Source: a virus (lineage: Duplodnaviria > Heunggongvirae > Uroviricota > Caudoviricetes). From it: a stretch of 4,087 nucleotides of DNA. The notes beneath the pieces were generated by a model, which worked only from the letters and a program-made list of their open reading frames with translations, was not told the DNA's origin and did not search any database. Below, in pieces: positions 2,564 to 4,087 of the stretch (the stretch's first letter is position 1; each line of letters begins with the position of its first letter). The translations under genes and the position numbers were made by a program. Location of the stretch: IMG/VR virus record IMGVR_UViG_2534681764_000006, positions 1 through 4,087 of that record; one strand, 5' to 3'.

Positions 2564-2850
2564 AAATAACCTTCCTTTCTCCAGATTTCTTGTGTGCGAA
2601 AAACACCTTCTGCATGCATCAGGCGTAATTCTTCTTTGGTGTAATCGCTGGTTTTTACCCGCCCGTCGATTAAATCGTGGCATGAGCTACAGGCAATCGC
2701 TGCCTGCATATCGTGTGGTTTTGTCGCTGTTCCGCACGTCCCCGCCAGCCTGTAATGCGCCAGCACAGAAGTTTCGGGATTGTGATTGCAGTAGCCAGGA
2801 ATTCTGACGGTGCACATCTGCCCCCGCGCCGCTTTACGTAAATCCACCAT
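2560..2850 (-). CDS. YbcO-like / DUF1364 Cys-rich putative zinc-binding nuclease (nin-region protein)
   Basis: 96-aa translation MVDLRKAARGQMCTVRIPGYCNHNPETSVLAHYRLAGTCGTATKPHDMQAAIACSSCHDLIDG... matches, in length and in the DLRKAARG / VRIPG.CN.NPETSVLAH / CGT.TKP / IACS.CHD blocks, my recollection of E. coli DLP12 YbcO. ATG at 2850..2848 overlaps the upstream stop as TAATG. Confidence 0.85.
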   Translation of the reverse strand: MVDLRKAARGQMCTVRIPGYCNHNPETSVLAHYRLAGTCGTATKPHDMQAAIACSSCHDLIDGRVKTSDYTKEELRLMHAEGVFRTQEIWRKEGYL

Positions 2851-3449
2851 TACGCAAACTCCAGTAACTGCGCGGCCACATTTTCGACTTCCTCCGGAGA
2901 GGAAAATTTACGGAACAGGATCCAGTTCCACAACACATTCAGTACAGATTTATAAACCTGCTGAAACACGGTTTCGTCCATGTTCGCAAATGCGATAGAT
3001 TTTGCCCTGCGCCCACGACTACCATCAGGATAAATATGCTCGGTGTAAAATCCGGCCTGAATGGTTACCCACTCGCGGAAAGCGTCAAACGACTTTAGCA
3101 ATGCCGTATCCCGGGTTCTGCATGTCGCAACGGTATTAAGGTATTGCTCTGCGGCATCACTCAGGGCTGGAGTGTGTTCCCGACCTACTGATTCGCACAG
3201 GTAATCAACGAAGCCCGATACCAGTTTTCGTTCGCGAGGCGTGATCGCCCCACCGACCGGAGTCCAGTAATCGAATCCCAGTTGCAGGAGTTTGAAAAAA
3301 CGCTTGTGGAATGCGTAGTTACGCACACGCTTAAAGTCTGCGTGTATCCACTCACCTATTTTGATTTGATGCAAAAAATCGCAACTCTCCGGCGTCGCCG
3401 GGAGAAGTAATCCGGAAGAGGTTTGTTTGACCAGTTGTATATGCGCCAT
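2850..3449 (-). CDS. Conserved prophage protein, DUF1367-like, 199 aa, function unknown
   Basis: ATG at 3449..3447 with GGAG 7 nt upstream; uninterrupted 199-codon frame whose stop is coupled to the next gene. The size and position just upstream of a DUF1364 gene match the DUF1367 family as I recall it; this is not verified. Confidence 0.8.
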   Translation of the reverse strand: MAHIQLVKQTSSGLLLPATPESCDFLHQIKIGEWIHADFKRVRNYAFHKRFFKLLQLGFDYWTPVGGAITPRERKLVSGFVDYLCESVGREHTPALSDAAEQYLNTVATCRTRDTALLKSFDAFREWVTIQAGFYTEHIYPDGSRGRRAKSIAFANMDETVFQQVYKSVLNVLWNWILFRKFSSPEEVENVAAQLLEFA

Positions 3450-3520: not shown

Positions 3521-3733
3521 CTAACAGGATGCTCTGACTCGCAATTCATCCAGCAGTTTATCATTTCCCATAATGTCACTTACCCTCATCGGTAAAAAAA
3601 TTGCCTTTCGACCATTACGATACATCATTGATTTTGGGATTTCAGGGAAGTAATCCATTTCGACTATAACTGACAGGTCATCACGACGTATGACTGCGTA
3701 TTTGCTACTAAATAGTTTCTTTATTTTTTCCAC
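3521..3733 (-). CDS. Small hypothetical protein (about 70 aa) in an AT-rich moron-like insert; probable GTG start
   Basis: The track ORF 3521..3772 begins at a GTG with no SD. An in-frame GTG at 3733..3731 is preceded by CCTGGAGG with a 4-nt spacer, giving (M)EKIKKLFSSKYAVIRRDDLSVIVEMDYFPEIPKSMMYRNGRKAIFLPMRVSDIMGNDKLLDELRVRASC. No TMD and no family that I recognise. The region is visibly more AT-rich than the flanking genes. Confidence 0.45.
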   Translation of the reverse strand: MEKIKKLFSSKYAVIRRDDLSVIVEMDYFPEIPKSMMYRNGRKAIFLPMRVSDIMGNDKLLDELRVRASC

Positions 3734-3813
3734 GATGCCTCCAGGTTTATAAGTACAAAAGGTTATATCCACATAGAGACAAAAATATTAATCTGAAAAA
3801 TATTTATTTCACG

Positions 3814-3886
3814 CCATATATTTGATTATTTAATGTGCAGGTACAATGACTTTTATTTTGTGTTGTGTATATAATCAAATATATGG
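3814..3886. repeat. Perfect 16-bp inverted repeat pair with a 41-bp AT-rich spacer, upstream of the small ORF
   Basis: Plus strand 3814..3829 CCATATATTTGATTAT and 3871..3886 ATAATCAAATATATGG are exact reverse complements. A consensus TATAAT at 3870..3875 on the plus strand lies inside the right arm. Confidence 0.9.
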
Positions 3887-3915
3887 TTATTTTTCACCCT
3901 GCGTATTCAGCGCGC

Positions 3916-3940
3916 AACAAAAAACCCGCCGAAACGGGTT
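3916..3940 (-). terminator. Rho-independent terminator after the upstream gene (nin-region tR-type terminator)
   Basis: Minus-strand RNA AACCCG-UUUCGG-CGGGUU followed by UUUUGUUG: a GC-rich stem with a U-tract, about 70 nt downstream of the stop codon at 4011..4009. Confidence 0.6.
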
Positions 3941-3979
3941 AAGCGCGGGTGCGTTGAGGATGCCTGACTCATCAGAGGT

Positions 3980-4001
3980 GGCGAGGGATTTCTCCCTCGC
4001 C
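3980..4001. other. Stable 9-bp stem-loop (GGCGAGGGA-loop-TCCCTCGCC) with no U-tract, 8 nt downstream of the upstream gene's stop
   Basis: Plus 3980..3988 GGCGAGGGA pairs perfectly with 3993..4001 TCCCTCGCC across a 4-nt loop. It lies in the 3' UTR of the minus-strand gene, upstream of the terminator. Confidence 0.5.
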
Positions 4002-4008
4002 TAGTCTC

Positions 4009-4087
4009 TTACTCCTCAGGTTCGTAAGCTGTGAAGACAGCGACCTCCGTCTGGCCGGTTCGGATTCGTACCTCGCAGAGGTCTTTC
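4009..4087 (-). CDS. 3' end of an upstream minus-strand gene (last 25 codons plus stop); identity unknown, possibly a nin-region gene
   Basis: The frame with codons starting at 4086 reads ...KDLCEVRIRTGQTEVAVFTAYEPEE then TAA at 4011..4009, using common codons. The other two minus frames are rich in rare AGG/AGA/CGA codons. The C-terminal pattern loosely resembles RusA-type resolvase C-termini, but 25 residues are too few to assign. Confidence 0.45.
   Translation of the reverse strand, partial: KDLCEVRIRTGQTEVAVFTAYEPEE

Follow-up and report, generated by a model that had tools for sequence, protein, structure and literature searches.

Is a perfect inverted repeat in the AT-rich noncoding DNA of a prophage a functional element, such as an operator, an RNA hairpin or the footprint of a mobile element, or only one allele of a spacer whose conservation has another cause? 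The question is raised by the 4,087-nt stretch of viral DNA analyzed here in full (the window), in which a sequence-only reading had claimed a perfect 16-bp inverted pair with a 41-bp spacer at positions 3814 to 3886. Direct reading and a repeat finder verified this complementarity: the core of the left arm (3814 to 3829, CCATATATTTGATTAT) and that of the right arm (3871 to 3886, ATAATCAAATATATGG) are exact reverse complements with 41 bp between them. Pairing can be extended to 18 of 19 positions with one mismatch (3814 to 3832 with 3868 to 3886), which leaves an inter-arm segment of 35 nt (3833 to 3867) with a nucleotide diversity (pi) of 0.030 that holds the −35-like hexamer of a plus-strand promoter-like site. 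Neither the arms nor the segment between them has a strand assigned.

The surrounding DNA is poor in G+C (23% at 3773 to 3900, with a window average of 48%). In 60 dinucleotide-preserving shuffles of the whole window (loops of up to 100 nt), the longest perfect inverted repeat was 8 to 14 nt, and it was 12 nt or less in 3,000 shuffles of 3773 to 3900. With a mismatch-tolerant score, none of 4,000 shuffles of 3773 to 3915 reached the repeat of the window, so the earlier view that it is improbable by chance even in AT-rich DNA was borne out. By the same score, the majority allele among the relatives (G at 3816) was reached by 4 of the 4,000 shuffles and the second most common haplotype by 45. 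The repeat exceeds local chance, and its perfect form is particular to the lineage of the window.

The window is part of a Rac-like lambdoid prophage, and its real genes all have the minus-strand orientation. The assignment follows from the near-identical strain LWY24, whose prophage has ydaT, ydaV, kilR, recE, recT, and ralR. Along the minus strand, the 3′ end of hokD (annotated at 4009 to 4087, with the stop codon at 4011 to 4009 and the coding sequence leaving the window) is followed by the hok terminator, the AT-rich spacer with the repeat, a phrog_1813 open reading frame (ORF), and the genes for a DUF1367 protein (2850 to 3449), a YbcO-type nuclease (2560 to 2850), a DUF1133/Q-like antiterminator (2021 to 2563), a holin, a lysozyme, and Rz. 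A terminator scan placed the intrinsic terminator of the hokD transcript at 3916 to 3940 on the minus strand, with a stem at 3940 to 3923 and then a T-run; it was the only terminator detected in the window, with none at the repeat. The phrog_1813 ORF (3521 to 3733, minus strand; WP_000411311.1), which opens the DUF1367-YbcO-Q-like-lysis block, most likely starts at GTG 3733 and would then encode 70 amino acids, as annotated by PGAP, with a GGAGG (3742 to 3738) 5 nt upstream of the start codon. An 83-amino-acid reading from GTG 3772 is probably wrong, as three loci have a 1-nt indel at 3745, and the stretch from 3734 to 3772 has 11 segregating sites in 39 nt. Searches of the ORF against Pfam gave no family match, and a low-confidence structure model (pLDDT of 56) has four strands and one helix, with no helix-turn-helix. 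Rem of K-12, which has 83 amino acids and the same position after hokD, is unrelated, and the K-12 hokD-rem spacer has no homology to that of the window.

Among 5,426 complete Escherichia coli genomes, the hokD part of the query was found in 4,697 and the spacer in 173, always on the chromosome and once per genome except for one genome with two places (174 places in total). The spacer was also found without hokD, in the Rac prophage beside trkG of strain F344, and therefore the module consists of spacer plus ORF rather than hok plus spacer.

To follow the repeat among relatives, we gathered viral-contig loci with the ORF as an anchor (overlapping sets of 80, 63, and 63 loci, about 140 related loci altogether), which fall into four groups. 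Arm diversity was measured on 61 loci of the main group, and pairs were counted on 19 distinct haplotypes. In the main E. coli group the spacers are 95 to 100% identical, and the perfect pair is found in only 3 of the 61 loci (three among the roughly 68 viral contigs with the repeat). In the majority, the left arm has one to three mismatches, its most common forms being ATAATCAAATATACGG, ACAATC..., and ...ACGAC/...ACAGC. The two arms are far from equally variable: the left one (3814 to 3832) has five segregating sites (3814, 3815, 3816, 3828, and 3829) and a pi of 0.061, the highest of any segment between terminator and ORF, versus a pi of 0.008 and a single segregating site (3877) in the right one (3868 to 3886). 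The base of the window at 3816 (A on the plus strand) is the rare allele, present in the same proportion of 3/61, and this one transition turns the 13-bp perfect core of the majority into 16 bp. No change in one arm was matched by a change in its partner among the 61 loci; over the 19 haplotypes, 1 of the 19 pairs showed a double change and nine departed only by unpaired cells.

Farther from the window, the pairing fades. The Rac-type group, with about 86% identity, keeps 11 of the 19 Watson-Crick pairs. In the Salmonella-type group, which is linked to a Salmonella prophage and has an ORF 55% identical, the spacer aligns over its whole length and only 5 to 9 of the 19 positions pair. The most divergent group has two loci only (L387 and L388), with a partly homologous spacer. 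In the main group and in the Salmonella-type group alike, variable sites cluster in the segment equivalent to the left arm of the window. By these alignments, the repeat is not maintained as a repeat, and the two arms evolve independently. The full-length Salmonella-type spacer, for its part, looks like a degenerate tandem duplication.

Our preferred reading, to which we give a probability of roughly 60%, is that the repeat is a quasi-palindrome of recent origin, its perfect form being a private allele; the conserved half would be explained by an overlapping promoter-like element, and the other half would be drifting. The repeat lies in an AT-rich regulatory spacer, after the hokD terminator and before the late-regulatory block, and its two arms are differently constrained. 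The right one holds the −10 hexamer, together with the start region, of a sigma-70-type promoter-like site that faces outward on the plus strand, which would explain why the arms are so unequal. The left one falls in the least constrained segment, upstream of the GTGAAA of a candidate sense promoter. Perfection over 16 bp comes from the single transition at 3816 in an already imperfect repeat, and the palindrome itself might have originated by local mutation or template switching. The repeat is probably not a functional unit, and readings as an operator, a conserved RNA hairpin or a miniature inverted-repeat transposable element (MITE) are not supported. Against the preferred reading, the majority form is still above local chance, which leaves room for a lineage-specific role of the repeat, and a plus-strand RNA hairpin of −19 to −24 kcal/mol persists within the main group with G·U pairing kept.

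The concept of quasi-palindromes perfected by point or template-switch mutation reportedly comes from Ripley and the Lovett laboratory. The repeat of the window resembles them in being an imperfect inverted repeat in noncoding DNA, with alleles that differ by single bases changing complementarity and with no sign of selection on pairing. It differs in that its 35- to 41-nt loop is long for hairpin-templated correction, and the case described here is known from sequence alone. A central spacer of 35 to 41 bp also makes cruciform extrusion unlikely.

Further copies of the 16-mer, which might have revealed a regulon or a MITE-like spread, were sought at several scales. The 49-kb LWY24 prophage, immunity region included, has no further copy of the arm; it gave one match with three mismatches versus 0.45 expected, and the 13-mer core was absent beyond the two arms. 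Scanning all viral contigs for the arm returned 43 loci with the same spacer and 76 matches elsewhere, all of the latter with flanks that are unrelated and without an inverted partner inside 170 nt, and a scan of 185,579 species genomes (596 Gb) gave scattered single matches of the 16-mer, as chance predicts. No related copy was thus found in the prophage, the E. coli genomes or the viral contigs, which excludes a dispersed miniature element as well as an operator regulon. The sequence-only reading had held that a repeat degenerate in near-identical relatives, with no other copies, would favor a chance or structural oddity over a functional site, and this is the situation encountered.

These scans bear most directly on the idea of a small mobile element, in which the repeat would be the footprint of a 73-bp unit that ends in inverted repeats of 16 to 19 bp and has duplicated its target, TTATTT(TT)CAC. 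Inverted repeats of the right size are there (16 to 19 nt, 3814 to 3832 and 3868 to 3886), and they are directly flanked on both sides by an imperfect direct repeat resembling a target-site duplication: TTATTTCAC, read from the sequence at 3804 to 3812, adjoins the left arm, and TTATTTTTCAC (3887 to 3897) lies within a block, TGGTTATTTTT, conserved in all groups (both copies without strand). The spacer is also a target of transposition, since an IS1 has inserted nearby in five related loci. However, the 173 E. coli genomes hold their 174 places always in the same context, with a single copy per genome apart from the one exception noted above, and where the arm matches in other contexts, the flanks are unrelated and a partner is missing. 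The homologous interior is retained in relatives that lack the repeat, and the sole presence/absence polymorphism is a 63-nt deletion between other direct repeats, not at the arm boundaries. Neither a target-site duplication with precise empty sites nor dispersed copies were found, and for this reason TTATTTCAC and TTATTTTTCAC were judged to be no real target-site duplication; a better reading is that they belong to the spacer's degenerate A/T-rich repetition. The left copy (3804 to 3812) is itself the −35-like GTGAAA of the candidate sense promoter. The MITE reading is effectively refuted, and we regard it as the least probable of all. The IS1 (IS1A-like, 98% identity) lies between the −10 of the candidate sense promoter and the ORF, at the equivalent of 3782 to 3786, in five viral-contig loci that include L052, L053, L055, and L060, and in these loci it separates the ORF from the entire spacer.

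What appears to be kept in this spacer is a promoter-like site rather than the repeat. The sequence-only reading had pointed to a plus-strand TATAAT in the right arm, and this hexamer turned out to be part of the best promoter-like site of the spacer on either strand by position weight matrix (PWM), ATGACT (3846 to 3851) and TATAAT (3870 to 3875) separated by 18 nt (3846 to 3875, plus strand; 10/12 matches, PWM score of 9.2). Near-consensus hexamers and a spacing within 16 to 18 nt are those of a sigma-70 promoter. The TATAAT overlaps the first 5 nt of the right-arm core, and transcription is predicted to start at about 3881 to 3883. As that reading had anticipated, the site points away from the small ORF and toward the 3′ end of hokD; its transcript would enter the hokD terminator from behind. 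This site is the top PWM match in the main, Rac-type, and Salmonella-type groups, with the same position and spacing, the Salmonella-type version (ATGACA-18-TATAAT) being embedded in a much more diverged spacer. Hexamer positions were variable at 1 of 24, versus 104 of 367 elsewhere in the spacer (main plus Salmonella-type groups; one-sided Fisher p of 0.004, in a test chosen post hoc, after the data had been seen). Comparable matches occurred in 427 of 2,000 composition-matched shuffles, and the promoter scan returned 2 sites versus 1.8 expected, so that by its sequence alone the site is not unusual for AT-rich DNA. It is deleted in 6 of the 63 Salmonella-type loci and is not kept in L387/L388. 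We would put the chance that the plus-strand site is an active promoter at slightly under even.

The deletion in those six loci (L074, L076, L081, L210, L216, and L219) spans 63 nt and is bounded by the direct repeats GTCAAAAAATAACC and GTCAAAAAATAGCC; it takes away the outward promoter-like block, which is thus dispensable in some prophages. Downstream of the plus-strand site, the hok-less Rac context showed no conserved ORF, RNA family or terminator. Two small coding candidates at this end of the spacer, a leaderless 19-codon ORF from ATG 3883 and a minus-strand peptide from GTG at about 3897, were discarded, as neither is conserved between groups.

On the strand of the genes, the most conserved block of the spacer (3773 to 3813; pi of 0.007) contains a candidate sense promoter at 3785 to 3812 (minus strand), GTGAAA (3812 to 3807) and TAATAT (3790 to 3785) separated by 16 nt, with a weak PWM score of 5.2. 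At the homologous place, L388 has GTGAAA-17-TATATT. The best sites on the opposite strands face apart, their −35 elements about 34 bp from each other, and together the conserved plus-strand site and the conserved sense candidate make the spacer look like a divergent promoter region. Within the same block, a small dyad TGAAA-N8-TTTCA at 3793 to 3812 (minus strand, TGAAATAAATATTTTTCA) overlaps the −35 of the sense candidate; as an operator candidate, this dyad is more plausible than the long repeat.

Such a setting would suit a pair of inverted sites through which a DNA-binding protein of phage or host regulates the divergent promoters; the candidates are a repressor that binds two sites with DNA bending, or IHF-like sites. 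Relative to the plus-strand site, the right arm takes in the −10 and the start; relative to the sense candidate, the left arm occupies about −37 to −55, just upstream of its GTGAAA. The repeat exceeds local chance and occupies a regulatory slot that in L387/L388 has a perfect LexA-box-like palindrome; and each arm of the window contains AATCAAATATATG, one mismatch from the IHF core WATCAANNNNTTR. However, the arms are 57 bp apart center to center, or about 5.4 helical turns, which puts them on opposite faces of the helix, whereas the half-sites of a dimeric repressor lie within about one to two turns. The conservation of the arms is unequal as well, with a nearly invariant right arm and a left arm that is the most variable part of the spacer, and the repeat is lost in the Rac-type and Salmonella-type spacers. 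The left arm of the majority departs more from the IHF core, and this motif is not conserved between groups. Copies with up to two or three mismatches are not above chance in the 49-kb prophage, which has no other copy even in its immunity region, and the neighboring ORF has neither a helix-turn-helix (in the low-confidence model) nor a Pfam match. Resemblances to CRP and Fur sites are only partial. The proposal of paired operator half-sites is not supported, given the independent evolution of the arms, their distance, and their uniqueness in the prophage, and the broader protein-binding version seems to us quite improbable.

A LexA box (CTGT-N8-ACAG) had no match in the window with up to one mismatch allowed. 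The palindrome of the divergent pair (CTGTATATGCATACAG and CTGTATATCCATACAG, within L387:930-1000 and L388:930-1000) comes just after a hok-type terminator, about 215 to 235 nt upstream of the ORF start (1201), and overlaps a TTGAAC/TTGATC-16-TACTGT promoter-like site. This arrangement suggests that in L387/L388 the small ORF and the late-regulatory block may be under SOS control. Compared with LexA-controlled promoters of accessory or regulatory prophage genes, the likeness is that this homologous slot holds such a palindrome; the window differs in having no LexA box and in having distant arms instead of a compact dyad.

RNA folding gave a divided answer. In the window, hairpins form on both strands, at −24.1 kcal/mol (z of −4.5) on the plus strand and −15.7 kcal/mol (z of −3.6) on the minus strand, but they are not kept across groups, and the long RNA stem-loop that had been proposed finds no compensatory changes and is lost in the Rac-type and Salmonella-type relatives. 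Fold energies decay across haplotypes and groups, without the covariation by which a structured RNA maintains its pairing, and no Rfam family matched at the repeat. The stem is AU-rich with a loop of 35 to 41 nt, and only on the plus strand does a U-rich tract come after it; this is not the build of an intrinsic terminator.

On the sense strand, the hairpin could form when transcription passes the hokD terminator and continues into the ORF, for instance as an RNase III processing site or a 5′-UTR structure. Read-through transcripts would carry both arms, and the z-score in the window favors folding. Against this, the common left-arm polymorphisms create A·C mismatches on the minus-strand RNA, the energies fall to −11.3, −9.5, and −6.0 kcal/mol in the common haplotypes (z of −2.1 to −0.5), the hairpin is absent in the Rac-type and Salmonella-type relatives, and the candidate sense promoter is located downstream of the repeat. 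We consider this explanation very unlikely.

The plus strand makes a better case for an antisense hairpin confined to the E. coli lineage, in which an AU-rich stem followed by UUAUUUUU could terminate or stabilize antisense transcripts coming from the ORF side. Energies in the common main-group haplotypes are −24.0, −22.5, and −19.2 kcal/mol, and they remain stable because each of the four common left-arm changes is a transition that leaves a G·U pair; the Rac type folds to a similar shape (−17.5 kcal/mol), and a U-rich tract (3887 to 3894) comes after the stem. Nevertheless, four of four wobble-compatible transitions have a probability of about 0.06 for one prenamed strand, which is suggestive only, the Rac-type fold has five mismatches and a z of −1.65, the hairpin is gone in the Salmonella type, and there is no covariation. 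The U-tract is conserved even where the hairpin is missing. Moreover, of the two predicted plus-strand starts (about 3829 and about 3882), neither precedes the left arm, and a transcript with both arms would thus have no identified promoter. An antisense hairpin appears as improbable as the protein-binding sites, and we regard it as a minor rival.

A broader proposal would give the plus-strand site a function and the repeat a secondary one: the site might be an antisense or insulator promoter of Rac-like E. coli and Salmonella prophages, to which the inverted copy of its −10 in E. coli adds a structural or protein-binding layer. If true, transcription from the outward promoter would run backward across the upstream terminator into hok or other cargo genes and shield the Q/lysis block from read-through, and in the E. 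coli lineage the inverted −10 copy would couple it to the divergent promoter of the 70-amino-acid ORF. As a whole, we find this combination unlikely, if a little less so than the operator and antisense-hairpin readings.

Leftward antisense promoters are known in the rightward early operons of lambdoid phages, such as lambda pO with its oop RNA, lambda paQ, and P22 sar. The predicted sigma-70-type site of the window is similar in opposing early/late-regulatory transcription upstream of a Q-like gene and in facing the 3′ end of the upstream gene. It differs from them in that the window has no defined short RNA, no terminator in the plus direction, and no recognized site for a CII-type activator, nor is there a conserved downstream product, as the sequence beyond it differs between hok-bearing and hok-less contexts. 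The other obvious comparison is with the divergent promoter spacers of AT-rich acquired DNA, with which this spacer shares its 23% GC and several promoter-like hexamers on both strands; unlike them, it has one site conserved in three groups, rather than lineage-specific noise.

Taken alone, the repeat has little weight. It is an example of how a striking perfect repeat in AT-rich prophage DNA can be the private allele of a decaying quasi-palindrome, and scans should give such inverted repeats a high rank only with comparative support. Of modest use is the finding that the spacer following the hok terminator is a regulatory slot, which starts the late-regulatory block in Rac-like and Gifsy-like prophages. 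Its contents (an outward promoter-like site and a candidate sense promoter, both conserved, and in one divergent group a LexA-box-like palindrome) suggest that this block, which is carried by pathogenic E. coli lysogens, has its own control. In the literature, the arm sequences appeared in no paper found, and nothing was found on the locus with regard to hokD, prophage, antisense or transcription start sites.

Some minor observations concern the rest of the window. Rfam gave a sub-threshold isrK match (26.9 bits versus a gathering score of 50) at 3919 to 4000 on the minus strand, over the 3′ UTR of hokD and its terminator. The match was not reproduced in relatives, and true isrK is located downstream of the Q-like gene in Gifsy-1 (PMC4825925), so the assignment was rejected. 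Between the Q-like gene and the holin, positions 1561 to 2020 differ from LWY24, which has there an ORF6N domain protein and a hypothetical protein. Terminator-like hairpins with T-runs were seen, by eye only, on the minus strand near 1690 to 1655, 1620 to 1580, and 1940 to 1905.

In the phage GenBank collection, a single record has the spacer, with 97.5% identity and nothing annotated in it. The segment of PP818812.1 (9650 to 18044; L267), a 47.5-kb record labeled as Actinobacillus phage vB_Apl-pPE4, is 97.5% identical to this E. coli prophage segment and keeps the hok-spacer-ORF-DUF1367-YbcO-Q-like order. Its host label looks doubtful, and the record suggests that the module resides in a complete phage genome.
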